64,000 nt of DNA from a virus. The translations under genes and the position numbers were made by a program. The notes beneath the pieces were generated by a model that saw nothing but the letters and a program-made list of their open reading frames with translations, did no database searches and was not told where the DNA came from. Every line of letters begins with the position of its first letter. Within the stretch, counting starts at the first letter, position 1. Below, in pieces: positions 7,017 to 58,155 of this stretch. The stretch is taken from IMG/VR virus record IMGVR_UViG_3300027763_002006, positions 28,216-92,215 of that record; one strand, 5' to 3'.

Positions 7017-7143
7017 TTTTTTGAATTAATTTGAAAAGTTTGTAATAGTAAATGAATTGTCGTGGATAATGTTCAAAGTTGGGCAATTCACCGAACTCCG
7101 ACTCCATTGCACGATATAATGCCAATGCTTGTTCATCAGTCAT
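7000..7143 (-). CDS. 47-aa hypothetical protein MTDEQALALYRAMESEFGELPNFEHYPRQFIYYYKLF...
   Basis: Manually found; overlaps both neighbours. Confidence 0.6.
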   Translation of the reverse strand: MTDEQALALYRAMESEFGELPNFEHYPRQFIYYYKLFKLIQKNAKPI

Positions 7144-8152
7144 TTAACAAGCTCGCAAGTTTAAAGCTGGCAATGTTTTTGCCCTTGGCTTCACACATGA
7201 TATCGGCCCACGAATTATGGGTCAGTGCCCAAGTATTCACAGCATCATTCCAATAGAAGTCGCTGTGTGCTCTAAGTTTGCCACGCTTATAGCCACTATC
7301 CATTAGCGCATGGTAGGCGGGACGTTCATGTGGGGTGTGTTCGACAAGATAATCTTCCCTACTGAGACTATAGTGAATAACAGGGCGAACGCCGCGCCAA
7401 CTATCACTAATCTTTTTAATACGATCATCAGTATTTTCAATGTATTCTCCTGTTTTAATCCAATGGTGATGGACGTCAAGTACTAATGCACAAGTATCCA
7501 CTAATTCTAAACTATCCTCTATGCCCCAAGAAATTTCATCATTCTCGATGGTAAGGCAATTACGTGCTTCTACACTAAGACGCTTATATGCCTGCCTAAT
7601 GCCTGCAGGCCCACGTCTTCCGGCGATGTGTACATTAATCTTAAAGTCCTGGAACGACTTTCCGTATCCCATCCAGCGTACCATATCTGCATGATATTCA
7701 AACTCCTCTATACTACGATCAACAATGTCAGGAGTTTCACTAGCAAGTACACAAAACTGGCCAGGATGAAAAGACAAGCGTACATTATTAGTCCTAGCAA
7801 CATTGCCAATGTTCGAAAAAACTCTACTACAGTAGTCCATAACATCTCTACGCCGCCAGAAGTAACTCCAGCTGGGTTCAGTATAAGCAGGAAGCTGATC
7901 ACTGCCAAGGCGCACCATCCTAAGATTTTCTTCAAGTTGTCCTACTCTTTCTACCAATAATTTTGTAGCTTCTAAGTTTTGAACCATCAAGTCCCATAAC
8001 TTTTGTTCCGCTACTTCACGAGTTTGGCGGTTAAGCCAACTTATAGTAGTTGTTCCAGTGTTATATCTTTTAGCATTGTCTTTGGGTTTAATCCCATCGA
8101 CTTGTTCTGGGTGGTCAATCCATTTGCAAGCAAAACCAATTCGTTTAGTCAT
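7136..8152 (-). CDS. uvsE: UV damage endonuclease
   Basis: RIGFACK, RLSFHPGQFCVLAS, TIENDE, VLDVHHH, HYS, AHSD, IMCEAKGKN motifs. Confidence 0.93.
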   Translation of the reverse strand: MTKRIGFACKWIDHPEQVDGIKPKDNAKRYNTGTTTISWLNRQTREVAEQKLWDLMVQNLEATKLLVERVGQLEENLRMVRLGSDQLPAYTEPSWSYFWRRRDVMDYCSRVFSNIGNVARTNNVRLSFHPGQFCVLASETPDIVDRSIEEFEYHADMVRWMGYGKSFQDFKINVHIAGRRGPAGIRQAYKRLSVEARNCLTIENDEISWGIEDSLELVDTCALVLDVHHHWIKTGEYIENTDDRIKKISDSWRGVRPVIHYSLSREDYLVEHTPHERPAYHALMDSGYKRGKLRAHSDFYWNDAVNTWALTHNSWADIMCEAKGKNIASFKLASLLND

Positions 8153-23624: not shown

Positions 23625-24566
23625 TTATAATCCGCGGCGCATTCGGTCTAGTTTGACAATAGTAGCACTTAAATTGATTTCAGGGTCAGCACACAAACTA
23701 TGATTCACCATGCCTTCTTTAATGATGATAATGGCAGCGTCTTGTGTGTCTTCATCATCACCCCAGAACGCTAAATTACGATACAAGAACTTGTAAACTT
23801 CTTCGTATTCTTCCAACGTAATCTTTTTACAGATCATTTCACGTGCTTGTCTAACTTTTCCGTTTTGGAACAGCGCAATGGCTTCCAACTTCCATTCACT
23901 GCTATCTGTGCCCTGTCCAGCCACTGGCATTTCCAATTTACCACTTCTGCTGTATTGTTGTGCTGTGTTAATTGCTTTACGCAGATCCGGATATGTTGCT
24001 TTGACAAAACTTGTCAATGTATCAACATCAAAGTCACAGCCTTCATCAGCAAGAATCTGTCCCAGTCGTACTGTAAAGTCTGTTTCATCCAAGTTGTTAA
24101 AACTAAACCCTTGACAACGACTGTGCAACGCTGGCATGATCTTGTGTGGCAAATTGCAAGTTAGAATGAAACGTGCCACATTACTGTACTGCTCTAACAT
24201 ACCACGCAACACACCCTGAGCACTAGGACTTAGATAGTCTGCTTCGTCAAGAATAATAACACGGAAGTCGCCAAAGCTCATACTACGACAAAAGTTACCA
24301 ACTTTATCACGCAGGTTATCAACACCAGTTTCGTGACTGGCATTAATAAACATAATATCTGCTTTTTGTACTTCTAGTTCATTGCATAGAACTTTGGCCA
24401 GTGTAGTTTTACCTGTGCCTGGAGGTCCGCTTAATAGCAAATGCGGAATGCTTTTGTCTTTAACCCAGCCTTCGACCATGAGTTTTTGGCTGGGATTAAT
24501 CCAAACATAGTCTTTAATGGAGGCAGGTCTATATTTCTCAACCCAGAGATAGTTTTGTGTAGTCAT
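23625..24566 (-). CDS. Clamp loader subunit (T4 gp44/RFC-like AAA+)
   Basis: LWVEKYRP, GPPGTGKTT, INAS, LDEAD, SRC motifs. Confidence 0.92.
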   Translation of the reverse strand: MTTQNYLWVEKYRPASIKDYVWINPSQKLMVEGWVKDKSIPHLLLSGPPGTGKTTLAKVLCNELEVQKADIMFINASHETGVDNLRDKVGNFCRSMSFGDFRVIILDEADYLSPSAQGVLRGMLEQYSNVARFILTCNLPHKIMPALHSRCQGFSFNNLDETDFTVRLGQILADEGCDFDVDTLTSFVKATYPDLRKAINTAQQYSRSGKLEMPVAGQGTDSSEWKLEAIALFQNGKVRQAREMICKKITLEEYEEVYKFLYRNLAFWGDDEDTQDAAIIIIKEGMVNHSLCADPEINLSATIVKLDRMRRGL

Positions 24567-24572
24567 AGTATT

Positions 24573-24601
24573 ATTATATACTAAGCCCTGACGAATGTCA
24601 A
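24573..24601 (-). promoter_or_regulatory. sigma70-type promoter, apparently leaderless clamp-loader mRNA
   Basis: TTGACA-17-TATAAT, ATG 6 nt downstream. Confidence 0.8.
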
Positions 24602-24604
24602 GAC

Positions 24605-24976
24605 TTATCTTGCGCCAAAGTCTTCGGCTCGGTGAGCAGGACTGCTCGTATCAAATCCTTCACCAAACATCATGTCATCAGGCTTATGATCTGATACCAT
24701 AAGGATGCCGTTTGGATCAATCTTTTGGAATTTAAACTTTTCACCATGCTCATCTTTAATTTCAATGGTCATAGTCCAACGTCCGTGTTCGCAGAGAATC
24801 CAGTCATCGACTTTGACGTCTGTGATGTCTTCTGCTACTTGCCATACTCGGCCCCAGCGAGGGCGAATACCTTCCATTTTACCGTTATCGTCTTTGAGTA
24901 CGATACCGCCTTTAGTCACACGTTCGCCCTGTTCTAGTACGGCAAAAATATTACCTGGTAATGGTCTAACCTTCAT
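24605..24976 (-). CDS. GroES-like co-chaperonin
   Basis: MKVRPL...ERVTKGGIVL mobile loop...VKVDD. Confidence 0.75.
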   Translation of the reverse strand: MKVRPLPGNIFAVLEQGERVTKGGIVLKDDNGKMEGIRPRWGRVWQVAEDITDVKVDDWILCEHGRWTMTIEIKDEHGEKFKFQKIDPNGILMVSDHKPDDMMFGEGFDTSSPAHRAEDFGAR

Positions 24977-25356
24977 TATAGTTCCTTGCTAATATTGTTA
25001 AAATCAAAATCTAATGGCTTAGAAGGCGCAACAGCATCTTCTTTAGTTTGAATCTCTACACTGCCGTCTGCATATGTTATTTCAACACGGCCAACACCAT
25101 CAGCGCCTACGATATCCTTGCGGCTGATTTCCTGCTCCATGGGATTAATCTTCACTGTTTTACTGGCCGGTCTTTTGTTATTATTATAAACAGCGTTTGT
25201 TATTTCTTTCGAATTGGCAACAATTTTGCCTCCTCGGCCTAGTAAATCTCCCTGAGCATTTCTATTAGAGTTCCCAACAGCAGTTGTCTGTCCTTTATCT
25301 GAGACAAAACCTTGCATATTAAATTCTCTACCTCTGGCTGTTCTATGATTACTCAT
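24976..25356 (-). CDS. Hypothetical phage protein
   Basis: 126 aa; NAQGDLLGRGGKIV. Confidence 0.6.
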   Translation of the reverse strand: MSNHRTARGREFNMQGFVSDKGQTTAVGNSNRNAQGDLLGRGGKIVANSKEITNAVYNNNKRPASKTVKINPMEQEISRKDIVGADGVGRVEITYADGSVEIQTKEDAVAPSKPLDFDFNNISKEL

Positions 25357-25832
25357 TTTAAAAATTCCTTGATATCTAAATTATATTTAATGCTATCTAT
25401 ACGATGCACTTTAAGTAAATATAATACATAACTTGCAATACTACTACCTCGGCCGACACCATAGACAATATTGTTTTTTCTTACTGTGTCGATAAAATAA
25501 ACTAAAAATCTTAATAGATCAGTTAAGTTTCTTTTTTCAAATTCATCTAATTCTAAATTAACTCTTGCCAACTGCATATTACTCAACGTATAGTTAGATT
25601 CTATATGTTGTCTAATATCGAGTCTGCGATACTCTTCGGGCATATTCCAAGTTATATCTTCTGTGGAACTGTCTAACTCGAATGGATTTTTAATTCCATA
25701 CGATTTACAAGTTGATTCAAATATTTTAAAACTTTGAACATTTCGAGGAAGAATTTTTGCTTGTCTATTCAACAGCATTAATTCAATGATGTCATCTTCT
25801 TCAACGTACATATTACCTTTATTGTCTAACAT
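25353..25832 (-). CDS. DNA polymerase III alpha (DnaE)-like fragment
   Basis: RVNLEL...GVGRGSSIASYVLYLLKVHRIDSIKYNLDIKEFLK; stops before the catalytic DxD. Confidence 0.8.
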   Translation of the reverse strand: MLDNKGNMYVEEDDIIELMLLNRQAKILPRNVQSFKIFESTCKSYGIKNPFELDSSTEDITWNMPEEYRRLDIRQHIESNYTLSNMQLARVNLELDEFEKRNLTDLLRFLVYFIDTVRKNNIVYGVGRGSSIASYVLYLLKVHRIDSIKYNLDIKEFLK

Positions 25833-26059
25833 TATCCGATGCTGATAAAACTACCAAAATCATTGTCTTTGCCTGTGCCAGCAGCCTGCTTGGCTCTAAT
25901 GTCTTGTTGTGCAAATTGCACTTCGTCTAACATATATGTCAGCTGACTGATGATACCTTCACTGGCACCTGCACGGCGTGCAACGTTCATCTTTTTAAGA
26001 ATCTCACGTTCACGTTCAATCAAATCATTTAATTGTTTGTTTAAATCAGGTTCAGTCAT
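25832..26059 (-). CDS. Hypothetical coiled-coil protein
   Basis: 75 aa ORF. Confidence 0.55.
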   Translation of the reverse strand: MTEPDLNKQLNDLIEREREILKKMNVARRAGASEGIISQLTYMLDEVQFAQQDIRAKQAAGTGKDNDFGSFISIG

Positions 26060-26381
26060 TTTTAAAGTTCACGCTTTCGCCGCAACCACATGCATAAGCA
26101 ACGTTGGGATTGTTCAAAACTAATCTAGAATTAAATCCAGTTTTTTCAATCTCTACTACGCTGTCTATGATATGCGGCACAATAGACTTATTGTACACTA
26201 TACTATGAGTGTCGTCAAGCTCTATTACTTCACCGTAGGCATCAGAAATAGGTGTCCAGGTATACATGTATCCGTTACAACCCTGAGCCTCTAAACCAAG
26301 CCGAACTGCGGGCATGTTGGACCGATCCAACATGTCAATAATATGCTTCTTGGCTTCGTCGGTGACAGTAAGAACTATCAT
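26052..26381 (-). CDS. sufA: A-type Fe-S carrier (SufA/IscA)
   Basis: GCNGYMY and NPN...CGCGES. Confidence 0.85.
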   Translation of the reverse strand: MIVLTVTDEAKKHIIDMLDRSNMPAVRLGLEAQGCNGYMYTWTPISDAYGEVIELDDTHSIVYNKSIVPHIIDSVVEIEKTGFNSRLVLNNPNVAYACGCGESVNFKND

Positions 26382-26707
26382 ACTTTTGCTAGTACTGTTA
26401 CTAATTCTTCTTTAGTGCTACGTGCTTTAACTTCGACACCATGCTTAGTAATAAGTTCCATTAGTTCAGCTTTGGTCATTTTAGTCAAGTCGGCTTTTTT
26501 ATATTTTGCTTTAACTGTAACTGGAGCAGTTTCAATTGCCATTTGTACTACTTCGGCTGGAGCAACTGCTTCTGGAGCAACATACACGGCTTCAGTGCCA
26601 ATAGCAACATTTGTCATTGCAGGTTGTGCTTCGACCTTATAAGGAGCGGCTTCTGCCACTGCTGTATCACTCTTGCCAGTGATCCAGGCTAGAATTTTCT
26701 TGATCAT
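26378..26707 (-). CDS. Hypothetical protein with C-terminal HeH/Rho-N-like motif
   Basis: LTKMTKAELMELITKHGVEV..TKEELV. Confidence 0.55.
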   Translation of the reverse strand: MIKKILAWITGKSDTAVAEAAPYKVEAQPAMTNVAIGTEAVYVAPEAVAPAEVVQMAIETAPVTVKAKYKKADLTKMTKAELMELITKHGVEVKARSTKEELVTVLAKV

Positions 26708-27026
26708 AATCGTACATTCCCATTTCTAATCTTGCCTCTTCGGATACTCTGTCAGGAGTCCACGGAGGATCAAACACTACTTCTACTGAAATAGTTCTCG
26801 TAGTATTTAACTCTTCGAGAGCATTTTCTACTACAACCTGCACCTGTGCTGGAATTTCTTCTGCACTGGGACAAAATGCTGATGTCAGTGTCATTAAAAT
26901 TTCAACACTGACATCATCAACATCAATTTTATAAATCAATCCCAAATCATAGATATTCACTGGGATTTCTGGATCATATACTGTTTTTAAACCAGCGATA
27001 ATACCTTGTTCAATTTGTTCGTTCAT
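26667..27026 (-). CDS. sufT: SufT/DUF59 Fe-S assembly protein
   Basis: VYDPEIPVNIYDLGLIY, MTLTSAFCP, VFDPPW. Confidence 0.9.
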   Translation of the reverse strand: MNEQIEQGIIAGLKTVYDPEIPVNIYDLGLIYKIDVDDVSVEILMTLTSAFCPSAEEIPAQVQVVVENALEELNTTRTISVEVVFDPPWTPDRVSEEARLEMGMYDYDQENSSLDHWQE

Positions 27027-27400
27027 AATGTTTTAATCTTTGCTATTAAGTTAGCAACACCATTTTGTCGTCCCATACTCAGTAGTGGCGCAAGTCCGAT
27101 GTCTGTAAGAGTATTTAAACTAAAATCCAGTTGTTGTCGTTCACTGGCTTGATTATACCAATCACAGATCATACAAGCCATGCCATTAACAATACTACTC
27201 TTACCCCATGCGGCAATACGTCCCGATTCTTCCCTGGCTAACCATAACGGACTAGTACAGCCTTTTACCAATGTTTGGTCTGTGTGATATTTGTGTGCTA
27301 GACCCACAGTGCCTGCGCCGTAGTCGATGATCCATTCGTACTTGTCCATGGCATCATCTAATTCAAATAAATCTTTAAACATGTTTTGAAAGTCTTGCAT
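27023..27400 (-). CDS. sufE: SufE sulfur acceptor
   Basis: KYEWIIDYG, VKGCTSPLW, LSMGRQNG. Confidence 0.85.
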   Translation of the reverse strand: MQDFQNMFKDLFELDDAMDKYEWIIDYGAGTVGLAHKYHTDQTLVKGCTSPLWLAREESGRIAAWGKSSIVNGMACMICDWYNQASERQQLDFSLNTLTDIGLAPLLSMGRQNGVANLIAKIKTL

Positions 27401-28559
27401 GTATCTCCCCTAGGCTGTCAAATGCTTGTTCTATTTCTTGTCTGGTAGTATAACAAGCCCAACTAAGTCTTAACAGGCCATTGTTACTAATTTGTGCTAT
27501 CAGTGGTTCTGCACACAATTTTCCACTGCGAATCATAATGTTCTTGGCATCCAGCATCATTGTATAATCTTCTACTTCGCCAACAACCGGATCTAAGCAG
27601 ATTAGTCCGGAGTCTGTTCGACTAGCCGGAGTAAATTGTGCCAAGGATATGTGGTCGTTGGTAATTCTAGCAAGTCCGATATCATGAGATTCTATTTCAT
27701 CGTGATGTTCGATTAACCAATTAACGAGTTTAGGCAGTGTGCAAATAGCCGCAAGATTCTGTGTACCACTTTCAAACTTGCCGGCATTGGTTTGCCAAGT
27801 CACTGAATCCACGCTTACACTGGTAACTGTGCCGCCGCCCGGACGTACTGGATTGAAATTTAGCCACACTGGATCTATCAGCAAACATCCCAGGCCCATA
27901 GGTCCGTAAACTTTGTGCCAACTCCAAGCAACAAAGTCGAATCCACTGATGTCTATTCTACGCTTACTAACGATTTGACTAGCGTCAATTACACTCACTG
28001 CCGCAACATCCAGGGCAATCTTTTTAATTCCATCTAAATCGTTGACCAGTCCAAGGACATTGCTAACAGCATTTACAGCAATGACTTTTGCCACGGCCAT
28101 TGGTTCTGCTTTAATTTTTGTTTTTAAATCATTTAAATCTAAACGGCCATCTTTGTCTAACTCAATGAAAACAACTCGCCATTTAGCATTACCAGACTGT
28201 GTCCAGGGCAAGATTAAACTGTGATGACTATCAATGCCAACAAATACTACACCGGATGACATTGCACTCATAATCATTGACGCGGCATCATTCAATCCCT
28301 GTGTCGTGCCACTGTTAAACACAATACGCTGTTCGGGTTTGTTAATGTTTAACCATTTACCTATGAGTTCTTTGCTAGATTGATATTGTTGGTCAACATA
28401 AGTGCCCATGCTATTGCCGCTTCGATGTGCATTGCTTTTATTACTCAACATAAAGTCTTGCATATCTTCGACAACGGTGTACAATGTTTGACTTGTGGCT
28501 GCACTGTCAAGATAAATTATATCTTGTCTACGTTTGAAGAAAGGAAAATATTCACGCAT
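27375..28559 (-). CDS. sufS: Cysteine desulfurase SufS (group II)
   Basis: IYLDSAATSQ, SNVLG, DASQ, SWHKVYGP (PLP Lys), FESGT, IRSGKLCA (catalytic Cys). Confidence 0.88.
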   Translation of the reverse strand: MREYFPFFKRRQDIIYLDSAATSQTLYTVVEDMQDFMLSNKSNAHRSGNSMGTYVDQQYQSSKELIGKWLNINKPEQRIVFNSGTTQGLNDAASMIMSAMSSGVVFVGIDSHHSLILPWTQSGNAKWRVVFIELDKDGRLDLNDLKTKIKAEPMAVAKVIAVNAVSNVLGLVNDLDGIKKIALDVAAVSVIDASQIVSKRRIDISGFDFVAWSWHKVYGPMGLGCLLIDPVWLNFNPVRPGGGTVTSVSVDSVTWQTNAGKFESGTQNLAAICTLPKLVNWLIEHHDEIESHDIGLARITNDHISLAQFTPASRTDSGLICLDPVVGEVEDYTMMLDAKNIMIRSGKLCAEPLIAQISNNGLLRLSWACYTTRQEIEQAFDSLGEIHARLSKHV

Positions 28560-28983
28560 TTAATAAACTTTGTTTAACTAATTCTTTGTAATCAGTGATA
28601 CCTCTACTGGCAAGATAATAATTATCCTCGGGTTTTAATGTTCCTAGAGCATTTCCATGATTAGCAATAATATTACTATTAGCAATAAACATTTCAGGAC
28701 GAGCTTTAATTTTACTCTTATCAAAAGGCCAACTGCGAATTTGAATATCTGTTTCAACTCCGCTGACATCTTTAGGTACATCTAATGTACAAACACAATC
28801 TACTTCACTGACGCCTTCTGCGTAGATATAAATCTTAACTTTAAATTTTGTATCGGGAAAAGGTTTTAGTTTGATGTTAGCAATACATTTACCTTCAGTC
28901 TGAATGAATACAAATTCATACTCGGGTCGTGTAGGAACTAATACTAAATCCAAATTGTCGGCATCTAAATATACTTTACGCAT
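28552..28983 (-). CDS. sufD: Minimal SufD-like protein (143 aa)
   Basis: C-terminal ARPEMFI...ANHGNALG..L..YYLASRGI matches the SufB/D C-terminus; lies between sufC and sufS. Confidence 0.65.
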   Translation of the reverse strand: MRKVYLDADNLDLVLVPTRPEYEFVFIQTEGKCIANIKLKPFPDTKFKVKIYIYAEGVSEVDCVCTLDVPKDVSGVETDIQIRSWPFDKSKIKARPEMFIANSNIIANHGNALGTLKPEDNYYLASRGITDYKELVKQSLLNA

Positions 28984-29629
28984 TACTTAAATCCAATTTG
29001 TTAGCACCATATAATTCTTGTAGTTCTTTATCATGTGTGACTAACAATACACATCCACGTCGATTTTTAGTTTCTTGAATTAAATCAATTATTTTTTGAC
29101 GGCTGCTTTGTTCTAATCCGCTGTCGGGTTCGTCCAATAGTAAGACTTGTGTTTTGCCTTGTAGATATACGGCCTGTGTGAGTTCATTCTTTTTACGCTC
29201 GCCACCGCTGGCACCATTATTGAACTGTCTTTTCTCCCAACCTTCGGGCAAGCCAATCCATTTAAATAATGACTTAGTAAGTTTGATTAATTCACCGGTA
29301 CTACCTGCAACGTTTTGCACTTTTTGTATTTCTTTAAACAATGTCATAGTATTAATGCCATCAATGGCAGGAGGACTTTGATGCGCCATGAATACTCCTG
29401 CTTGACTACGATCATGACAAAGCATGTCAATTATTTCTCCACTGAGAATTTTAATACTGCCTGTGGCATTAATATCTGGTCTACCCATAATAGTATGTAG
29501 CAAGGTCGATTTACCACTGCCGTTTGGTCCTGTGATCAACAAACATTCCCCTGGCTCTACTGTAAAACTAATATTGTTTAAAATTTGTTTATCGCTGATA
29601 CTTGCTGATAGATTGCTTACTTTAATCAT
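28976..29629 (-). CDS. sufC: Fe-S assembly ATPase SufC
   Basis: GPNGSGKSTL, SGGERKKNE, LLDEPDSGL, VTH. Confidence 0.88.
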   Translation of the reverse strand: MIKVSNLSASISDKQILNNISFTVEPGECLLITGPNGSGKSTLLHTIMGRPDINATGSIKILSGEIIDMLCHDRSQAGVFMAHQSPPAIDGINTMTLFKEIQKVQNVAGSTGELIKLTKSLFKWIGLPEGWEKRQFNNGASGGERKKNELTQAVYLQGKTQVLLLDEPDSGLEQSSRQKIIDLIQETKNRRGCVLLVTHDKELQELYGANKLDLSNA

Positions 29630-29927
29630 TTAATAAAACTTCCAGTTCGCCAGCTTGGTACATTTCCATCATAATATCACTACCGCCAATGAATTCGCCC
29701 TTGATATATAATTGTGGAACAGTGGGCCAATTGCTGAATTGTTTGATGTTTGATCTCAAAGCATTGTCGGCTAAAACATTGCGACTTTCAAATTGTTCAA
29801 CATTACAAGCTCGTAAAATTTTTGTGGCCTGCTGACTGAATCCGCATTCTGGAAATTGTGGCGTACCTTTCATAAACAGTACTACCTTGTTTGTTTCTAC
29901 CAATTGTTTAATCTCTTCTAAGTTCAT
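29622..29927 (-). CDS. grxD: Monothiol glutaredoxin Grx4
   Basis: [35 protein letters not shown]. Confidence 0.93.
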
Positions 29928-31339
29928 CCTATGCTTCCTTCCATGGTTACTGCTAGTAATTTATTCGCTTCCGCCGCAAATTCTAAAGGCAATGTGTTTA
30001 ATACACTACGGCAAAAGCCGTTGACAATGGCACTTGCTGCCTGCTCAGGATCTAATCCTCTAGTGGCTAGATAATATAATTCTTCATCACTTACTCTGCC
30101 TGTTGTTGCTTCATGCTCAATTTGCGCCGAATCGTTTCTGCAATCTGTGTAAGGAACAGTATTGCTACGACTGTTGTCGCCAATCATCAAACTATCGCAT
30201 TGCGTGTAGTTACGAGCATTTTTAGCACCTGGATTCATTCGCACAAGTCCACGATAAGTCATGGTGCTGTTACCTATGCTAATACCTTTGCTGATAATTT
30301 TACTGCGAGTATTAGCACCGATGTGAATCATTTTTGTACCAGTGTCAGCTTGTTGATGACCTTTGGTAACGGCCACTGAGTAAAACTCTCCGGTACTCCC
30401 TTCCCCTTGCAGTATGCAACTTGGGTACTTCCAGGTAATGGCTGATCCTGTTTCCACCTGAGTCCAACTAACTCTACTTTTAACTCCACGACAGTGGGCA
30501 CGTTTTGTGACAAAGTTGTAAACGCCACCGACCCCGTGTTCGTTGCCTGGGTACCAATTTTGTACAGTTGAATATTTAATCTCTGCCCTATCAAGGGTAA
30601 TAAGTTCGACGACTGCGGCATGTAACTGATTCTCGTCACGTTGGGGTGCTGTACATCCTTCCAAGTAAGATACATAACTATCCTTGTCTGCTATAATTAA
30701 GGTGCGTTCGAACTGACCGCTACCTGCACTATTAATTCTAAAATAAGTGCTTAACTCCAAAGGGCATCGTTTACCTTCTGGAATATATACAAAACTGCCA
30801 TCACTGAACACTGCGGAGTTGATACAGGCAAACCAATTGTCACCTTGAGGTACAACTGAGCCTAAATATTCTTTAACTAGTTCTGGATGATCTTGTACTG
30901 CTTCTGTAAAACTGCAAAAGATAATTCCTTCTTCTGCTAGTTTAGCTTTGTATGTTGTGCCAATACTGACACTGTCAAACACAGCATCAACTGCTACACC
31001 TGCAAGTTTAGCACGTTCATGTAATGGGATACCTAGACGTTCAAAGTCATCTAAAATCTCCTGCGGGACTTCATCTAAACTTTTAAATTGTTTCTTAGGA
31101 CGACTGTGATAGTAAATGTTATCATAGTCTGGGCGTGTGTATTTTAACTCGGCCCAATCTGGCTCCTTCATAGAACTAAGTTTATCTAACGCACCGAGTC
31201 TAAACTCTAGTAGCCAATTAGGTTCATTGTTCTTAGCACTGATAAGTCTGACAGTGTTTTCATTCAAGCCTTTGCCTGTCAATTCACTTTCGACATTAGT
31301 AGTAAACCCTGCGGTGTATTCTTGCTCTAATTCATTCAT
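29924..31339 (-). CDS. sufB: Fe-S scaffold SufB
   Basis: [65 protein letters not shown]; start moved to MNELEQ (ATGA overlap). Confidence 0.96.
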
Positions 31340-31548
31340 CGTTTTAATATATCGAACATGTTGCCATATTCGTATCGTGACCAATCATCGTGATCAACAT
31401 AGGTGTTGATTTTTCTGCGATAAATCCGCTTACCCCAAACACGTTCATTATCGACGGTGTAAACTGGATGCCAAGCAAACCAAATCGTCCAAGGTGCCAT
31501 TTTTATCTTTCTAGCAACATTGCCAATGGGATCAAACATTAACTCCAC
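31336..31548 (-). CDS. Hypothetical protein
   Basis: 70 aa, WFAWHPV motif. Confidence 0.55.
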
Positions 31549-37927: not shown

Positions 37928-38620
37928 TTAAGGCCTACTTCTTTCTTTAATGGCCGCTTTGACCAAGCTGTCTATACTGTTGATTAATGGAATACCATTA
38001 TGGTTGTCTTCCTTGACTGCCAATGGTATTTCAGTACAACCCAATACCACTGCTTGAGCACCACGTGCTATCAAACTATCTACCACAGACATAAACATTG
38101 GATGTGACTGTTCAAGTTCGCCGCTTTTAATCAAATTAATAGCAGGTTGCACCAATGTCGACATTTCTTCTTTAGATGGGACGATGCAATTCCATCCCTG
38201 ATCATTTAATCTAGTTTGATATAACCCAGATTCTATTGTGCCTTGCGTACCTAAGATACCTATATTTTTACCTGAAAGATTTAAACTTTTTAATTCTTCT
38301 GCAACGCTATCTACAATGTGTAAAATAGGTACACTTATCTCAGAAAGCTGTGAGTACCAGAAGTGTGCCGAGTTACAAGGTATGACAATATAACTACATC
38401 CTGCATTCATCAATCCTCTAACACCACCTTGTAACCAATGCAATGGCAAATTATCTCCAGATCGTATACTGGTACTACGATCTGGTATTCGAGGTTCATT
38501 CCAAAGAACAAATGGAATATGTTCTTGATCGCAGGTTGCGGGAGTTTTTTTAATTAGTCTATTAACAAACTCTGCAGATGCAGCCGGCCCCATTCCACCA
38601 AGTATGCCTAGGCGTTTCAT
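37928..38620 (-). CDS. Aspartate/glutamate racemase
   Basis: LGILGGMGP, DQEH, IPDR, IPCNSAH and LGCTEIP (both catalytic Cys). Confidence 0.92.
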   Translation of the reverse strand: MKRLGILGGMGPAASAEFVNRLIKKTPATCDQEHIPFVLWNEPRIPDRSTSIRSGDNLPLHWLQGGVRGLMNAGCSYIVIPCNSAHFWYSQLSEISVPILHIVDSVAEELKSLNLSGKNIGILGTQGTIESGLYQTRLNDQGWNCIVPSKEEMSTLVQPAINLIKSGELEQSHPMFMSVVDSLIARGAQAVVLGCTEIPLAVKEDNHNGIPLINSIDSLVKAAIKERSRP

Positions 38621-38679
38621 AGTATAAAAAATACAATGATTATCAAAATGCCAACAGCTATGACAGTAGGAAGTCTCAT
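38617..38679 (-). CDS. 20-aa hydrophobic micro-protein MRLPTVIAVGILIIIVFFIL
   Basis: ATGA overlaps at both ends. Confidence 0.5.
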   Translation of the reverse strand: MRLPTVIAVGILIIIVFFIL

Positions 38680-39278
38680 TTTTTAAATAATAACGCAGAA
38701 GCAATGATTAATGCTGTTTGTGCCGCTTCTACATCACTGGGCTGTTCTTTCCAACCTACACTGATTTGTCCTATGAATACACCAGGCTCTGCTGGTACAC
38801 TAATACGACACATATAATTTACACCAGCTTCTTTATAAGTAAAGCCAATGAGACTCTGCGGCTTAAGATATGGACTACAAGGAATTTTACCGGACATTAG
38901 TCCTATGACATCATTGTTGTTGTCATAGTTTTTACTAAACAGCCCAACGTCTAATCCATTGTGTTCTTTAATCTTTCCGCCATTGCGTGTGGCCAAGAAC
39001 ACAATTTTTCTTGTGTTTATTAATGTGTTGACTTCCATGATAGACACAAGTTCTATGTCTGTGTGCTTCAACAAGAAATTATATGCTTCTTCATACTGAC
39101 CATTCATCTTGGGCAATGCCTGCTGAGCACGGTAGCTGGCCATGAAGTTATCCTTTTCAGAATAAACAATCCAGCCACCGAATCCTAATATACACAGGAA
39201 CACAACAGTAAATAGGCGAAATGGACTTTCGCCTATGTATGTCAATAAACTTAAAAGAAAGTCTTTAAGTTTGTCCAT
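38676..39278 (-). CDS. Single-TM protein with soluble C-terminal domain (T4 holin-like topology)
   Basis: Amphipathic N-helix, one TM, ~160-aa domain with two Cys. Confidence 0.45.
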   Translation of the reverse strand: MDKLKDFLLSLLTYIGESPFRLFTVVFLCILGFGGWIVYSEKDNFMASYRAQQALPKMNGQYEEAYNFLLKHTDIELVSIMEVNTLINTRKIVFLATRNGGKIKEHNGLDVGLFSKNYDNNNDVIGLMSGKIPCSPYLKPQSLIGFTYKEAGVNYMCRISVPAEPGVFIGQISVGWKEQPSDVEAAQTALIIASALLFKK

Positions 39279-40539
39279 CTTCTTGTTCTTTGTCACAGAC
39301 GAATGCTGTTACTGCGACATTTCCATGTACGTGACTTGCTGTGCGAATCATGTCCATTAGTGGATCAACTGCAATCAATAATACTAATACAGCTTCGCTG
39401 GGTAGTTTTAACAAGTCACAGACAACTGCTACTGTGGCCACCGTTAAGATACCTGTTGTACCTGCACTTGCTAATCCTGCTAAAATGCTACCAAACAATA
39501 CAACTGCTAGTCCTGTCAAGCCTAATGGTGCATCATAGATGTTGGCAATAAACACTGTGGCAATAGCATAGTAAACAATACTACCAATACGGTTAACAGT
39601 GAAACTTAGTGGAACAGTTAGTTCAACTCCACCTTTGTCGAACTTCAACTTGTGTAGTGCTTCTTGTGCATATGGGATACAAGCTAGACTACTACGTGAA
39701 CTCACAGCAACAATTAATGTTTCTTTAGTTTCACGGATAACAGTGGCAAGGCTCAATCCACTACGCATCCAAATTACTACTGTACCTAGAGCAATCACTA
39801 AGAATCCACCAATTGCTTGTTGGAATACAAAGTCAAACATAGTCATAAAAATACCAACGCCAACTTTACCCACCTGTGATGAAATCATGGCTAATAGTGC
39901 AATTGGTAGGAAGTAATTTAGGAATTTAAAAATACTAATACTTGCTTGTTGAACGCTCTTTAGAACTTCAACCAACATACGTTGACCCTCGGTTTTTAAG
40001 TGTCCTAATGCTACACCAAAGATTAAACAGAAGATAACGATCTTTAAACTCTCACCATTGTTTAATGTGTTGAAAATGTTTTCTGGGATAAACTTTTCTG
40101 CCATTTTACCAGCACTAACTTCTGCTGCCACTGGCATTGGTTCTTTAAGAGTGATGTTCAAATCAGTGCCACTGTCTTTGTCATTGACTAAAACACCAAG
40201 TTGTGTTTTCTTTTCAGGAGTCATTTCACTGCCTGTGATAACAACTGTACCTACTCCAATAACTGCGGCAATAAACATACTGCTGACAAAACCAATAATA
40301 ATTCTGCGAATTAAAGTTTGACTGCCTTCTTTTTGTAGTAAGCCAATGATACCAACTAGAATAGTTGCTAACAAGAATGGCAGTACAACTACCTTCAACA
40401 AACTAATATAGATGCTGCCAATACTGTCAAGGCCTATGCTGAACTCAGGAGCATACACTCCGCTTAAAATACCTACGATGATTGATCCTAAAATAGTCCA
40501 AGGACTAGTCAGGAAACTTTTTAAATGTGCTGTTGTCAT
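39265..40539 (-). CDS. Dicarboxylate/amino acid:cation symporter (DAACS/GltP family)
   Basis: Multiple TMs; FIPENIF, SSRSSLACIP, VPLSFTVN, DPLMDMIRT. Confidence 0.9.
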   Translation of the reverse strand: MTTAHLKSFLTSPWTILGSIIVGILSGVYAPEFSIGLDSIGSIYISLLKVVVLPFLLATILVGIIGLLQKEGSQTLIRRIIIGFVSSMFIAAVIGVGTVVITGSEMTPEKKTQLGVLVNDKDSGTDLNITLKEPMPVAAEVSAGKMAEKFIPENIFNTLNNGESLKIVIFCLIFGVALGHLKTEGQRMLVEVLKSVQQASISIFKFLNYFLPIALLAMISSQVGKVGVGIFMTMFDFVFQQAIGGFLVIALGTVVIWMRSGLSLATVIRETKETLIVAVSSRSSLACIPYAQEALHKLKFDKGGVELTVPLSFTVNRIGSIVYYAIATVFIANIYDAPLGLTGLAVVLFGSILAGLASAGTTGILTVATVAVVCDLLKLPSEAVLVLLIAVDPLMDMIRTASHVHGNVAVTAFVCDKEQEDGQT

Positions 40540-40548
40540 GTTAAGTCC

Positions 40549-41367
40549 TTATTTCTTTTCTGCTTTGTATCTATCCATTAACTTTTTAGTGTCAATGTTA
40601 TTGTATTCATTTTTAATGACGTGATTAACAACGCTTAACAATTGAATTGCTTTTGGATTTACTGCAACGGCAATGTTATCTACGCTGTCCGAGATTGTAA
40701 TGGTCTTAGTGCTAATTGCGGCGTCTGGCTTTTCAAAAGAAATTTTCTTGATTTCAAATTCATCACGGTAAGCGGCAGCAATATCGCCACGTGTGACTTT
40801 GTCAATGATTACATCCCATTTATCTTCAGGAAGGAATACAGCGTTAGGGAAATTGATACGAGCAAATGTATCATAACTTGAGTTGCGAATAAAACTAATC
40901 TTACCATTAAAATTTCTAATCACTTGATAAACTTCTTTGCCCTGACTGTTTTGACTTAACCATAAACGATTAATAACCAAACTTTGTCTTAGTTTAATAT
41001 AAGGATCACTGAATCTAACAACTTGTAAACGTGGACCAGTTACGGATAATTTACTAACAGCAATGTCAGCTTTGCCTTCTCTAACTTGTTCAACAACTTC
41101 AGCAAAACTTTCTGCATCGCGTCTGAACTGTACTGGCACTCCAAGTAGGACACCAATTCGTTGAGCAATCTCAACGTCAAGACCTCGAATATTATCGCCT
41201 TCTCCAGAGAAGAAAGGAGGAACATCTTTTTTGGTCATTGCTACGACAAGAACGTTGGCTTTCTTGATTGCGGCAATATCTGCGGATAGGGGTACTGTGG
41301 AACCTGGCATCTGTGCCTGGACTAGTGAGGAAACCAGTACGAATAGTAGGGTGATTAGTTTTTTCAT
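40549..41367 (-). CDS. Polar amino-acid substrate-binding protein (SBP family 3)
   Basis: Signal peptide; PPF..GLDVEIA, GKADIAVS.LSVT..R..VRFSDPY. Confidence 0.88.
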   Translation of the reverse strand: MKKLITLLFVLVSSLVQAQMPGSTVPLSADIAAIKKANVLVVAMTKKDVPPFFSGEGDNIRGLDVEIAQRIGVLLGVPVQFRRDAESFAEVVEQVREGKADIAVSKLSVTGPRLQVVRFSDPYIKLRQSLVINRLWLSQNSQGKEVYQVIRNFNGKISFIRNSSYDTFARINFPNAVFLPEDKWDVIIDKVTRGDIAAAYRDEFEIKKISFEKPDAAISTKTITISDSVDNIAVAVNPKAIQLLSVVNHVIKNEYNNIDTKKLMDRYKAEKK

Positions 41368-41968: not shown

Positions 41969-42694
41969 TTATTTTTCTCCTGTTTTTTCTAATTTGGCAA
42001 TATAGTTTGCCATCAAGTGATCATATGCGCCAAGGAATTTCTGCCACTTGGCCAATGCTTTTGCTCTACTACGAGCCATGTCTTTTACCTGCTGCCACGG
42101 TGTTAGGTTTTTAAACTCACCGTGATAATCCATGTATACGTGAGTTCCGTGATGTGTAAATCCCATCAAACTAAACGGAACCTTGGTAACAGCGTCGCAG
42201 TTGTTTTGTACTCTGTAATGTGTAACTGTTAAACAGTTGACATATTCCTTGTTACCCACTTTTGGTGATCCAAACGTTACCAGTGCTAGCACCTTGGACT
42301 GCATTCTGCCTGCGGCAATGGTGGCCATTGCGGCACCCAAACTGTGTCCAGTGACATATAGACTGTCAATGCCAGCAACAGCTTTTTCTAATGTGGGCCA
42401 CAACTTGTTGATTTCAGTTTTAAAACCCACGTGAATTTTGCCACCAATGGCTTCAATGTTTTTACCAAACTGCAAGTCAGCCAAGATGTCTGATGACTCA
42501 GTGACCTCAGTGCCTCTGAAACTTAAAACGTGAATGCCATCAATGCCCTTGAGTAAGTATGCCTGTGCATTGTCAATGTCGAAAAAATCGACAATAGTGT
42601 ATCCTAATGTGTTAAATTTGGGTTTAGCAATGTCAGGAACATCGTATGTTATATTTGCTATTTGAGCGAACAACAATAGTTGACTTTTTTCCAT
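41969..42694 (-). CDS. Lipase class 3
   Basis: SFRGTE, IHVGF, TGHSLGAA nucleophile, TFGSPKVG, D.VTKVP. Confidence 0.9.
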   Translation of the reverse strand: MEKSQLLLFAQIANITYDVPDIAKPKFNTLGYTIVDFFDIDNAQAYLLKGIDGIHVLSFRGTEVTESSDILADLQFGKNIEAIGGKIHVGFKTEINKLWPTLEKAVAGIDSLYVTGHSLGAAMATIAAGRMQSKVLALVTFGSPKVGNKEYVNCLTVTHYRVQNNCDAVTKVPFSLMGFTHHGTHVYMDYHGEFKNLTPWQQVKDMARSRAKALAKWQKFLGAYDHLMANYIAKLEKTGEK

Positions 42695-43272
42695 TATTCT
42701 TCCTCTTTAAATTTAAAATTCATACTAATAACAATGCGTAATCCATCGCTGCGATTTTTAGTAACATGATGTGGCATCGTGCTGTCAAACATTAAAAACT
42801 TACCTGCCTGTGCTTTAATTGTTTGTTGCATAAGCAAGTAAGGATTTTTATGATATTGAAACACAAAGTCTCCGCTATCTTGTGGGACTTGAATCCAAAA
42901 TGCCGCACTGACATGTGCGCCGTGTTCATAATCGTGCGCTGACTCATGACTGTGAAGATTGGTAGATTCATTACGTTCGTGAACCACTGCCCAAAAGGCT
43001 TGGTTAGGATCTTGCCCTGGCTTTTCTTGCCAGCATGATTCTATTTCTTGTCCAAATGCTGTTTTCCATTCATCGCATAATGTTTTTACTATGCGTTGAA
43101 CCTGTGGAGTGAATTCTATTCTAATATCCTCTGCTCTAATATCTTCTGGGTCTTGGGCCATGTTACGACCTTGATCGTAGTTACGCATGACCATGTCAAC
43201 CAGAGGCTGGAGATCTTCTTCAAGTTCCCCAACAAGATATTCACATTTGGTCAGCGTAACTACTTCAGTCAT
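42694..43272 (-). CDS. 2OG-Fe(II) oxygenase-like protein
   Basis: HSHE, FDSTMPHHV, RIVISMNF. Confidence 0.75.
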   Translation of the reverse strand: MTEVVTLTKCEYLVGELEEDLQPLVDMVMRNYDQGRNMAQDPEDIRAEDIRIEFTPQVQRIVKTLCDEWKTAFGQEIESCWQEKPGQDPNQAFWAVVHERNESTNLHSHESAHDYEHGAHVSAAFWIQVPQDSGDFVFQYHKNPYLLMQQTIKAQAGKFLMFDSTMPHHVTKNRSDGLRIVISMNFKFKEEE

Positions 43273-50765: not shown

Positions 50766-51261
50766 TTAGATGCTGTAACATGCTATCTGCGCTGGTTGTT
50801 TCCAGTAAAGAAAAATCGTCAACAGTGACATATTCAATTACACCATTGTCGATTACAAACGCCCACCGTCCGGATCTTGTACTCAGTCCTTCGAAGGTAA
50901 AGTCATGTGATAAATTGTTTGCTTTAACGAAGAAACCATCACCGTCGCCATAAAATTGAACATTGGATGTTTTGGCAACTTCTTCAACATGTTCTTGGAA
51001 TTTTTTCATTACAAACGCATCTTGCACATAAAGTCCAATGATTCCGTCTATACCATGTGAAAGAATTTTAGTACTGGCACTTTCATAGTCAATGGCTTGT
51101 TTAGTATCAAGTTTACTAAATGGTGCCGGTCCCATGAATACCAATAATCTTTTACCTTCGAACAAATCTTTGATACTCACGCTTTCATGAAGCCCACTTG
51201 GGTTAATTCTATATACAACCCCTAGATCTACAGTCTGTCCTTTTTTCAGTGCTAATGTCAT
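50755..51261 (-). CDS. Peroxiredoxin (Prx5/redoxin)-like protein lacking cysteine
   Basis: LFEGKR.LVF..P..F, DAFVM, DGDG.F, G...RS.R.A..IDNG; no Cys in the protein. Confidence 0.7.
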   Translation of the reverse strand: MTLALKKGQTVDLGVVYRINPSGLHESVSIKDLFEGKRLLVFMGPAPFSKLDTKQAIDYESASTKILSHGIDGIIGLYVQDAFVMKKFQEHVEEVAKTSNVQFYGDGDGFFVKANNLSHDFTFEGLSTRSGRWAFVIDNGVIEYVTVDDFSLLETTSADSMLQHLNEA

Positions 51262-51926
51262 TTTCTATCTCCAAATAAATTTAATAAATTAAGAAACAAG
51301 TTAATGAAATCCATATACAACGTTAGCGCACCACGCACTTCAGCAACTCCGTTAGTTTCGTAACTAACTTCTTCTCGAATCTTTTGTGTGTCATAGGCAG
51401 TTAATCCTAGAAAGATAATAATTGCCAATGCACTAATAACTGTTTGCAAAACTGTGCTGCCAATAAAGATATTAACAATGCTGGCAATGACAATGGCAAT
51501 TAAACCAATGAACATAAACTGTCCCATGCTGTCTAAACTACGTTTTGTAAAGTATCCATATGCGCTCATTACCCCAAACAAAATTGCCGCTCCCATGAAT
51601 GCACTTACGATACTGCCCATGGTAAACACTGCAAAGATTGTAGCAAAACTTAAACCCATTAATGCTGAAAAACTGTAGAGCATGAGTTGAGCACCCTGCT
51701 TGTTTGCCTTTTCCATGGCAAAACTAATTGCAAAGATTGCCACCAATGGTGCAAAAATTACAATCCATTTCAGTACACCCGTAAAGAAGAACTGCAATAG
51801 TTCAGGGCTCGAACCCACAAAATAACTTACAAACATCGATATAATAACAGCCAAACTCATGTGTCCATAGACACGGCCCATGGCTGAGTTAATTTCACTG
51901 GCACTTCTATAAACTGCGTATTCCAT
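51258..51926 (-). CDS. Bax inhibitor-1/YccA family membrane protein
   Basis: ~7 TMs; YGYFTKRSL, TAYDTQKI, ALTLYMDFINLF. Confidence 0.92.
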   Translation of the reverse strand: MEYAVYRSASEINSAMGRVYGHMSLAVIISMFVSYFVGSSPELLQFFFTGVLKWIVIFAPLVAIFAISFAMEKANKQGAQLMLYSFSALMGLSFATIFAVFTMGSIVSAFMGAAILFGVMSAYGYFTKRSLDSMGQFMFIGLIAIVIASIVNIFIGSTVLQTVISALAIIIFLGLTAYDTQKIREEVSYETNGVAEVRGALTLYMDFINLFLNLLNLFGDRK

Positions 51927-56813: not shown

Positions 56814-57412
56814 TTGAATTCTTCCCAATTAAATAAAAATTCACTGTCCAACTTTTCGTATATCAGCCATTGCTTAGTATAGTTGATTTCTAATGGAAAG
56901 TCAAGTACTGTCGCGCCATTATAGAATAATCGTCGCGGAGTTCGGCCAGAAATTCTAGTAGCACTTTCTCCGGCACGAGTTCTAATACATACTTTGATTA
57001 AATTTTTATTATAATCATTAAATGTCAATGTAATAAATTTACATTTGTTTTTAACTGCCCATGCCTTACATGCAGGGAGAATGTATTCGGCAACTAATAA
57101 TTTGTTTCTATGTTCAGTATGTGCCCATGTTCTGATACCTGCCATTGCAATATCTTCGGTCCATTCACTGAAGTAAACGCCGCCGCTGGCCACTGGTAAT
57201 TTATCGTCAAACAACACAAAGTATTTACCGTGATCGAATTTATTTTCTACTTCTAATATATAGCGCAGAGTATTATTTTCATTTCGCCAAGTTTTGCTGT
57301 GCATATTGACCATGGCAGGACTGGTATCTTTTTGACATTCTGATTCTATAGTGTCCCAAAAATGTTGTAGTTCTGATTTGGTTAATTTATTGTATTCTTT
57401 TACTTTGTACAT
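56771..57412 (-). CDS. GNAT-like hypothetical protein
   Basis: VASGG, RTWAHTEHRNK resembling acetyltransferase motif A. Confidence 0.45.
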   Translation of the reverse strand: MYKVKEYNKLTKSELQHFWDTIESECQKDTSPAMVNMHSKTWRNENNTLRYILEVENKFDHGKYFVLFDDKLPVASGGVYFSEWTEDIAMAGIRTWAHTEHRNKLLVAEYILPACKAWAVKNKCKFITLTFNDYNKNLIKVCIRTRAGESATRISGRTPRRLFYNGATVLDFPLEINYTKQWLIYEKLDSEFLFNWEEFKWQDKIKIVKRKLG

Positions 57413-58155
57413 ACTAGTTTAATTACCCATGTCAAAGGATCTATTTCCCAGAATTTATATGTTGTGCTGGGATTCTTTGCGTCGCCGTGATGATTATTGT
57501 GCCATGCTTCGCCTAGTATAATGGGCCAAAGCCATGCATTATTTCTACTATGGTCTTTTGTTTCGTAATTACGATAACCAAATTTGTGACCAAAATAATT
57601 AAAATTGCTGGTACTAAGTTGTATTAGCATTGCAGGCACTAGCCAAGCCCAATAAAATAATTGTAGATCTATTAAAGCTAATATAGAAATTACGAATAGT
57701 AATAAAATCATGTACCATTTATGTATAAACAATTGGGCCGGTGTCATTAATTCTTTAACCAAGAATATCTTCATTTCACCTTCTTGTTGTTTCATATGTC
57801 CAAAGCCAAACAATTTATATCCTAAATTATGCGGGCTATGCGGGTCTTTGTCTTGGTCACTGTATGCATGATGCAATCTATGTAAATAGACCCAGCCTAA
57901 AATACTGCCGCGACCTGTTAATAAAGCAATAACAGAGAACAACCATTTAAGCACAGGGTTCAGTGCAAAACTTTTATGACTATAATATCTATGAAATGTC
58001 ATCCATACTCCCAGGATGTTCAAAACATAAAAACTTGTCAACATGATTAGTATGTTGCTTAATGTATAATCAACAAAAAACAATCCAACTATGCTGTTAA
58101 TAAAAACAAAAATAGTTAGTAGATTTATATTTCTACTTGTGGATCCAAATATCAT
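57400..58155 (-). CDS. Fatty-acid desaturase (delta-9 type)
   Basis: His boxes HRYYSH, HRLHH, HNNHH. Confidence 0.9.
   Translation of the reverse strand: MIFGSTSRNINLLTIFVFINSIVGLFFVDYTLSNILIMLTSFYVLNILGVWMTFHRYYSHKSFALNPVLKWLFSVIALLTGRGSILGWVYLHRLHHAYSDQDKDPHSPHNLGYKLFGFGHMKQQEGEMKIFLVKELMTPAQLFIHKWYMILLLFVISILALIDLQLFYWAWLVPAMLIQLSTSNFNYFGHKFGYRNYETKDHSRNNAWLWPIILGEAWHNNHHGDAKNPSTTYKFWEIDPLTWVIKLVCTK

Follow-up and report, generated by a model that had tools for sequence, protein, structure and literature searches.

Single iron-sulfur (Fe-S) helper genes are already known in phages. Nishimura et al. described an A-type carrier, IscU, PaaD/DUF59, and glutaredoxin in marine T4-like genomes, which also carried up to 12 radical S-adenosylmethionine (radical-SAM) genes (PMC5332604). 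The reference for a full SUF pathway is that of Escherichia coli (sufABCDSE), with a SufBC2D scaffold (PDB 5awf), a SufS-SufE relay, and a described SufBC2D-SufE assembly (PMC13485665). In the open-access literature, we came across no account of a phage with a complete SUF operon; what is described there is single genes, the SufB of amoC-phages, and the disputed MaAM05/PhiMa05. Here we report on a nine-gene suf operon in a 64,000-nucleotide stretch of viral DNA (the window; positions 28,216 to 92,215 of the IMG/VR virus record IMGVR_UViG_3300027763_002006). Judged from its sequence, the operon is a real, conserved, and virus-specific SUF pathway with a predicted function. We think it probable that it is a working, phage-owned Fe-S assembly line, most likely serving phage Fe-S enzymes. 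A complete virus-specific set under selection would mean that giant phages can bring along a whole prosthetic-group pathway.

Nine overlapping genes encode the components of a SUF pathway

The operon occupies window positions 26052-31339 and consists of nine minus-strand open reading frames (ORFs), with neighbors overlapping by 4 to 41 nt. Their order is sufB, a gene for a CGFS monothiol glutaredoxin (grx), sufC, a 143-aa sufD, sufS, sufE, sufT, orf8, and sufA. We searched the products with Pfam and NCBIfam profiles and read the bit scores against the curated cutoffs:

29924..31339, minus strand: sufB, scaffold subunit, 471 aa; NF008773, 812 bits (cutoff 717)
29622..29927, minus strand: grx, CGFS monothiol glutaredoxin (Grx4/GrxD/Grx5 type), 101 aa; TIGR00365, 145 bits (cutoff 117)
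28976..29629, minus strand: sufC, ABC-type ATPase, 217 aa; TIGR01978 as top NCBIfam match, 156 bits (cutoff 213)
28552..28983, minus strand: miniature sufD, 143 aa; Pfam SUFBD_core, C-terminal part only (profile 178-220 of 232)
27375..28559, minus strand: sufS, type II cysteine desulfurase, 394 aa; PF00266, E 2.6e-73; TIGR01979 as top match, 239 bits (cutoff 475)
27023..27400, minus strand: sufE, sulfur acceptor, 125 aa; PF02657, 78 bits (cutoff 27)
26667..27026, minus strand: sufT (DUF59), 119 aa; PF01883, 64 bits (cutoff 23.5); TIGR02945 SUF_assoc, 120 bits (cutoff 143)
26378..26707, minus strand: orf8, virus-only small protein, 109 aa; no family above threshold
26052..26381, minus strand: sufA, A-type carrier, 109 aa; PF01521, 35 bits (cutoff 26.3); TIGR01997, E 1.6e-17

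A preliminary description of this DNA, made from the letters alone, had proposed an overlapping nine-gene SUF operon here, and we recovered both the ORFs and the families that it named. Its choice of the sufB start was also correct: the ORF has an alternative TTG start at 31384, and homology begins at the ATG at 31339. TIGR00049 scored 54.3 bits on SufA, slightly under its cutoff of 58.8, and TIGR01981 scored 35 bits on the miniature SufD (mini-SufD) against a cutoff of 222. A separate assignment of the operon to the SUF-like minimal system (SMS) or minimal SUF type was rejected: the SmsB model NF052511 gave 186 bits with a cutoff of 650, and SufD, SufS, and SufE are all present.

We compared functional residues by alignment with solved E. 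coli, Bacillus subtilis, and Thermotoga maritima proteins. The phage SufB matched E. coli SufB (5awf_A) in a phmmer search with an E value of 1e-186. It retains the equivalents of E. coli R226, N228, C254, Q285, W287, K303, C405, and E432/H433/E434, residues whose roles in the E. coli protein have been described (PMC5571166); the dispensable CxxCxxxC insert is missing. SufC aligns to residues 1-207 of the 248 in E. coli SufC and retains the Walker A motif, Q-loop, signature, Walker B glutamate, and H-loop, with a C terminus about 30 aa shorter. The pyridoxal phosphate-binding lysine (HK) and active-site cysteine (LCAEP) of SufS align with those of B. subtilis SufS, and the cysteine in the GCTS motif of SufE takes the position of Cys51 in E. 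coli SufE. The CGFS motif of the glutaredoxin is intact in an alignment with human Grx5, plant GrxS14, and E. coli Grx4. All three ligand cysteines of SufA (C-x(n)-C-G-C) align with E. coli SufA (2d2a), SufT aligns to TM0487 with its conserved cysteine retained, and His109 of mini-SufD falls at the position of E. coli SufD His360. The key residues that the preliminary description had listed for SufB, SufC, SufS, SufE, the glutaredoxin, SufT, and SufA are therefore intact. These alignments support the prediction that the gene set is complete for the SUF pathway, with sulfur mobilization by SufS-SufE, a SufB-SufC-SufD scaffold, and SufA, SufT, and the glutaredoxin as carriers. The word "self-sufficient," which had been applied to it, seems too strong: iron, cysteine, and reductant must come from the host, and probably glutathione too.

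The operon resides in freshwater T4-type jumbo phages

The source is a 92-kb IMG/VR virus record that is about 26% complete. The operon is flanked by genes for a T4-type clamp loader (phrog_168, E 1.5e-78), a gp31-like co-chaperonin, tail fibers, a Lon-like protease, and a cell-wall hydrolase, in agreement with the phage flanks noted before. Five tRNA genes lie in the window, and the guanine-plus-cytosine (GC) content is even across the operon region. Downstream of sufA, the following genes run in the same direction:

23625..26059, minus strand: 75-aa ORF, 159-aa DnaE-fragment-like ORF, 126-aa ORF, gp31-like co-chaperonin, and T4-type clamp loader; phrog_168, E 1.5e-78; phrog_931, E 2.4e-11; PF07733 fragment

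In 7 other viral contigs, which come from different metagenomes and reach 235 kb in length, the operon recurs with the same phage genes on either side; protein identities range from 40% to 99%. A second IMG/VR profile scan, with mini-SufD, yielded no contigs beyond those 7. The downstream phage-gene order is retained after the operon in contigs L003-L009. The 159-aa ORF of that block (25353-25832, minus strand) matches the DNA polymerase III alpha NTPase profile over a fragment only (PF07733, positions 18-94 of 260). In every relative it immediately follows the SUF operon, and it is conserved, more distantly, in L107 and L119 as well.

Among T4-type jumbo-phage markers, the clamp loader and gp31-like genes are in the window, and gp23 is known only through a relative: a gp23-type capsid gene is present in the 235-kb close relative G001 (E 2.6e-81) and was not found in the 92 kb of the source record. 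We conclude that the genome hosting the operon is a freshwater T4-type jumbo phage. Among cultured phages, the Pseudomonas PA5oct group has the most similar clamp loader (56% identity). A tblastn search of 50,697 phage records found no SufB in PA5oct-group phages, and no near-identical DNA was found among cultured phages. Searched with SufB and SufS, the same records returned the contested MaAM05, host-like fragments, and Acinetobacter phage MD-2021a records (328-379 kb), which carry a sufS-annotated gene with 27.6% identity to the phage SufS.

The phage clade is common in lakes: 20 studies yielded 24 freshwater or lake runs that contain parts of the window, most of them with a small share only. 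Four runs were compared with the sequence, in 30 bins. Two DNA runs, from different lake studies, cover all bins, and exact contigs span the sufC-grx-sufB junctions and the junction of sufB with its upstream neighbor. RNA-library contigs, covering 18 and 8 of the 30 bins, lie on sufB, grx, sufC, sufT, orf8, and sufA and span the junction of sufA with the downstream phage genes; we take them as a weak hint of transcription. Because of the synteny in 7 viral contigs and the junction-spanning contigs from two lake metagenomes, we reject an assembly artifact, and the doubt that the preliminary description had raised about contig integrity is removed.

The phage genes are diverged from bacterial suf genes and under purifying selection

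The closest bacterial SufBs are 67% identical to the phage protein and come from alphaproteobacterial metagenome-assembled genomes (MAGs; one genome per species was searched); those of other Pseudomonadota and Bacteroidota are 63-67% identical. Near-identity to a bacterial chromosome, a possibility that had been raised earlier, is thereby ruled out. The divergence is uneven, as had been suspected: in bacterial loci whose SufB is 64-67% identical, identity is about 33% for SufC, 26% for SufS, 29% for SufE, 28% for SufA, and 45% for SufT. The strong divergence of SufC, SufS, and SufE suggests a closed, co-evolved phage system.

Phylogenies were quick maximum likelihood searches that sampled 44-80 bacterial SufBs, with support given only as the Shimodaira-Hasegawa-like approximate likelihood ratio test (aLRT). 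In the first tree, the six SufBs of the clade form a single group (aLRT 100), set off by a long stem (length 0.75). A SufB-profile survey of IMG/VR gave 99 contigs. In a second tree, 25 of 26 viral SufBs fall together (aLRT 87) with no sampled bacteria inside, and this group divides into a short-SufD branch (aLRT 94) and a full-length-SufD branch (aLRT 100).

The ratio of nonsynonymous to synonymous substitution rates (dN/dS) in pairwise comparisons is 0.02-0.31 across all nine genes, including 0.04-0.10 for mini-SufD and about 0.21 for orf8, which indicates that the nine genes are under purifying selection. Since the closest bacterial SufB is 67% identical, the viral SufBs stand apart from those of the sampled bacteria, and dN/dS is low, the operon is old in phages and not a recent host capture. 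This fits the long phage residence that had been suggested at the outset. The operon is also mosaic among relatives. Against L003, sufE is 69% identical and its neighboring genes 94-96%; against L006, sufA is 55% identical and mini-SufD 90%.

A miniature SufD retains the cluster-site segment

A full-length SufD has about 420 aa, with an N-terminal domain, a beta-helix, and C-terminal helices. The phage gene between sufC and sufS encodes 143 aa only and retains the His360 equivalent. An AlphaFold2 model of the protein (predicted local distance difference test score, 94.5) shows a short beta-helix followed by two helices. Compared with solved structures, it matches only SufB/SufD-type chains with confidence, and its full length of 143 residues can be aligned with E. 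coli SufD 243-399 (Z 10.7, root mean square deviation 2.3) and SufB 316-471 (Z 12.3). According to the model, mini-SufD is thus a SufD without its N-terminal two thirds, in which the segment with the cluster-site histidine is retained.

Public metagenomes contain 270 clusters (at 90% identity) of a protein of about 143 aa, on contigs of up to 360 kb, and an exhaustive profile search brought up further short SufD-like proteins that are complete at 146-230 aa. Across 80 short SufD-like proteins, neither His109 nor Pro96 varies. Other families of 146-153 aa (P0131-P0133, P0142, P0161, P0196, and P0202) have the conserved histidine, and one of these is encoded on a 427-kb contig. In the IMG/VR operons, the product of the gene in the slot between sufC and sufS differs in length: it has 143-156 aa both in this clade and in a sister clade (75% SufB identity), whereas four contigs have one of 276-286 aa, L119 has one of 194 aa, and the remainder have 384-456 aa. 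Proteins of all of these lengths retain the histidine and the YYL-SRG helix; the losses are N-terminal. The series of about 420, 280, 194, and 143 aa suggests a stepwise reduction. sufE adjoins sufS in every short-SufD operon and is mostly not there in full-length-SufD operons. One scenario, to which we give roughly even chances, is that T4-type jumbo phages acquired SUF in a single ancient event, after which one branch shortened SufD stepwise through these lengths while adding SufE and a CGFS glutaredoxin.

In the SufBC2D-SufE structure, SufE binds to SufB and its neighboring SufC rather than to the N-terminal domain of SufD (PMC13485665). Therefore, the loss of the SufD N terminus need not block sulfur delivery. 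If the proposal is right, the 143-aa protein would be a naturally occurring minimal SufD, still able to pair with SufB and SufC. The last turns of the beta-helix, His360, and two helices would then suffice, and the long-unclear role of SufD would become directly testable. The graded SufD lengths of phages would amount to a natural deletion experiment on a subunit of debated function.

Proposed function and alternative explanations

We propose the following route. During infection, phage SufS would take sulfur from host cysteine as a persulfide and hand it via the SufE cysteine to SufB Cys229 (E. coli C254). The sulfur would then pass through the SufB beta-helix to Cys381 (C405). A cluster would be built at the interface of SufB Glu410 (E434) and mini-SufD His109 (H360), driven by a pair of SufC ATPases, and would be delivered to apo-proteins by SufA, SufT, and, where present, the CGFS glutaredoxin. 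The clients would most likely be phage Fe-S enzymes, chiefly the radical-SAM and twitch-domain proteins of the lineage. These enzymes may cause a sudden rise in Fe-S demand, beyond what the host machinery could supply once it is shut down or overloaded in lytic infection.

The relatives carry many candidate clients. We counted 17 radical-SAM matches in the 235-kb G001, 15 in G003, and 3 each in two fragments. The arrays include at least 8 tandem NF033640 twitch-domain radical-SAM paralogues, one of them an 850-aa double-domain fusion. Twitch domains of characterized members hold auxiliary clusters. The arrays are located at L019 (G001:C1:145500-165499) and at G003:C1:94-118 kb. A separate SUF-bearing T4-type phage (L137; 340 kb, 91% complete, gp23 positive) has 11 radical-SAM matches. 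Fer2 ferredoxins were not found in five related records. SufT has been linked to high Fe-S demand in Staphylococcus aureus (PMC4982691), and Nishimura et al. also put forward phage-encoded Fe-S proteins as clients (PMC5332604).

Several observations weigh against our proposal. No radical-SAM gene was found in the 92 kb of this phage's own record; therefore, the argument about clients is drawn from its relatives. SufC, SufS, SufA, and SufT score under NCBI's curated cutoffs. SufD is without two thirds of its length and SufC without about 30 C-terminal residues; therefore, a canonical SufBC2D complex is not assured. Finally, the RNA-library contigs cannot prove transcription, nor can they give an expression level or transcript ends.

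The first alternative is that the operon is a host-directed auxiliary module. In oxic lake water, under oxidative stress or when iron is limiting, phage SUF would keep clusters on the host Fe-S enzymes of respiration, central metabolism, and nucleotide synthesis, and enzymes of the phage would be minor clients. Two points fit this idea: of the E. coli pathways, SUF is the stress-tolerant one, and no client gene was found in the 92 kb of the record. The single Fe-S genes of marine phages have been interpreted in this way (PMC5332604). However, SUF operons co-occur with 11 to 17 radical-SAM matches in two separate phage lineages, and SufC, SufS, and SufE are strongly diverged from the bacterial versions. 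We consider this explanation unlikely, although it is the strongest competitor.

It is also conceivable, though improbable in our judgment, that mini-SufD is a remnant in decay or serves some other purpose and that the true scaffold is SufB2C2, as in minimal SUF and SMS. Just one third of SufD remains, and SufB2C2 and SmsBC scaffolds do exist (PMC12584684 and PMC12442378). Against this explanation stand a dN/dS of 0.04-0.10, His109 and Pro96 invariant in 80 short SufD-like proteins, 270 clusters in public metagenomes, and a confident predicted fold. Moreover, the phage SufB scores as a true SufB, with only 186 bits for the SmsB model against the cutoff of 650.

We see very little chance that SufS-SufE is what matters in the operon and that it relays sulfur for the thio-modification of phage tRNA or DNA instead of assembling clusters. 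The phage has tRNA genes, and cysteine desulfurases feed many thiolation pathways (PMC8300815), but SufB, SufC, SufD, SufA, SufT, and the CGFS glutaredoxin are all under purifying selection. We know of no role for these six proteins outside Fe-S assembly. Last, an assembly chimera or bacterial contamination of the viral contig can practically be dismissed: some suf-bearing "phage" records do look host derived (e.g., MaAM05, with sufBCDS-iscU beside panB/panC at the record end), but here the same junctions recur in 7 contigs from different metagenomes, the sufA/phage, sufB/phage, and sufC-grx-sufB junctions are spanned by contigs of two lake studies and of RNA libraries, the closest bacterial SufB is just 67% identical, and GC content is uniform.

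Our proposal of a phage-owned assembly line also has a practical side, in that the streamlined phage set is a candidate for a compact cassette with which to produce Fe-S proteins in other hosts.

The glutaredoxin slot, orf8, and regulatory sites

The preliminary description had singled out the embedded grxD. We found the gene between sufB and sufC, as reported, but it is not fixed. grx occupies this place in the window, L003/L004, and L005 and is missing in L006 and L007; its slot is filled by an 84-aa membrane protein in L008 and by a 263-aa ORF in L009. Contigs that skip exactly grx (29610/29614 to 29924/29926) come from the same lake samples as grx-bearing contigs. Thus, grx is a presence/absence variant within populations. 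The sister clade has a grx in the same slot (58% identical), as does L121, where grx is 78% identical although SufB is just 66% identical; in L119, grx lies between sufE and sufT. It is a recurrent and probably exchangeable member of short-SufD operons. Some relatives also have small ORFs in a second insertion slot, located between sufE and sufT. Genes in slots were located at 11900-12180 in L003, 11900-12200 in L007, 9114-9343 in L008, and 8537-9322 in L009, and they include a Cys-rich, zinc-ribbon-like 67-aa ORF.

All relatives have a conserved orf8 at this place in the operon, with an overlap of about 40 nt with sufT. Its product has a conserved N-terminal helix, an APYKVE motif, a variable Pro/Val/Ala linker, and a C-terminal motif that resembles HeH/Rho_N; the Pfam match to HeH is weak and below threshold (E 0.026). 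Its Atlas neighbors are unnamed viral clusters only, with Rho_N/SAP leading at 0.78.

A promoter and terminator scan found no terminator on the coding strand of the operon and no enrichment over shuffled sequences. Two strong sigma-70-like sites, at 33053-33025 and 24601-24573 on the minus strand, are both outside the operon.

Other genes in the window

A product encoded within 37928-41367 (minus strand) matches the cysteate racemase CuyB equivalog (227 bits; cutoff 190). This gene is one gene away from that of a sodium:dicarboxylate-family symporter, which itself adjoins a family-3 solute-binding protein gene. Together they may form an organosulfur or amino-acid uptake module; a link to the sulfur supply of SufS would be speculation. 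Two adjacent fatty-acid desaturase paralogues (PF00487; di-iron enzymes) are encoded at 57400-58931 (minus strand), just before the tRNA cluster. At 51258-51926, 7136-8152, and 41969-43272, the window has genes for a Bax1-inhibitor family membrane protein, a UvdE UV endonuclease, a class-3 lipase, and a 2-oxoglutarate-Fe(II) oxygenase.

Comparison with known systems

The phage operon shares with the E. coli-type SUF system its six components, with functional residues mapped on the E. coli proteins (PMC5571166), and a SufB that is 64-67% identical to proteobacterial SufB. It differs in being encoded by a lytic-type jumbo phage, in its 143-aa SufD, in a SufC that is about 30 residues shorter at the C terminus, and in SufC, SufS, and SufE that are only 26-33% identical to bacterial ones. 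In addition, SufT, a CGFS glutaredoxin, and a virus-only small gene are included in the phage operon. The alphaproteobacterial sufBCDS-sufT-sufA operons (e.g., Puniceispirillales MAGs, L021-L028) have the same B-C-D-S-T-A backbone and the highest SufB identity, 66-67%. In those operons, however, SufD is full length and sufE, grx, and orf8 are not included, and the phage SufB is not nested among theirs.

Among viruses, the full-length-SufD T4-type jumbo contigs of IMG/VR (e.g., L137) belong to the same viral SufB group (aLRT 87) and share a sufB-C-D-S-T backbone and many radical-SAM genes. They differ in a SufD of 384-438 aa, in operons without sufE, grx, and sufA, and in their separate SufB sub-branch (aLRT 100). 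The Microcystis phage MaAM05/PhiMa05 likewise has suf genes (sufBCDS-iscU) on a large phage record, but its SufB groups with those of cyanobacteria and Nitrosomonas, the genes are beside panB/panC, and its viral nature is disputed. Freshwater amoC-phages (bioRxiv 10.64898/2026.06.18.733297) also carry a suf gene on a large phage record; theirs is a lone, host-like SufB. The marine T4-like phages with single Fe-S genes (Nishimura et al. 2017, PMC5332604) share the T4-like background and likewise combine Fe-S supply genes with a large number of radical-SAM genes. Whereas those phages encode carriers or scaffolds only, the operon described here adds a desulfurase, a sulfur relay, and an ATP-driven scaffold. 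Giant phages appear to bring an Fe-S pathway to serve their own enzyme arsenal.

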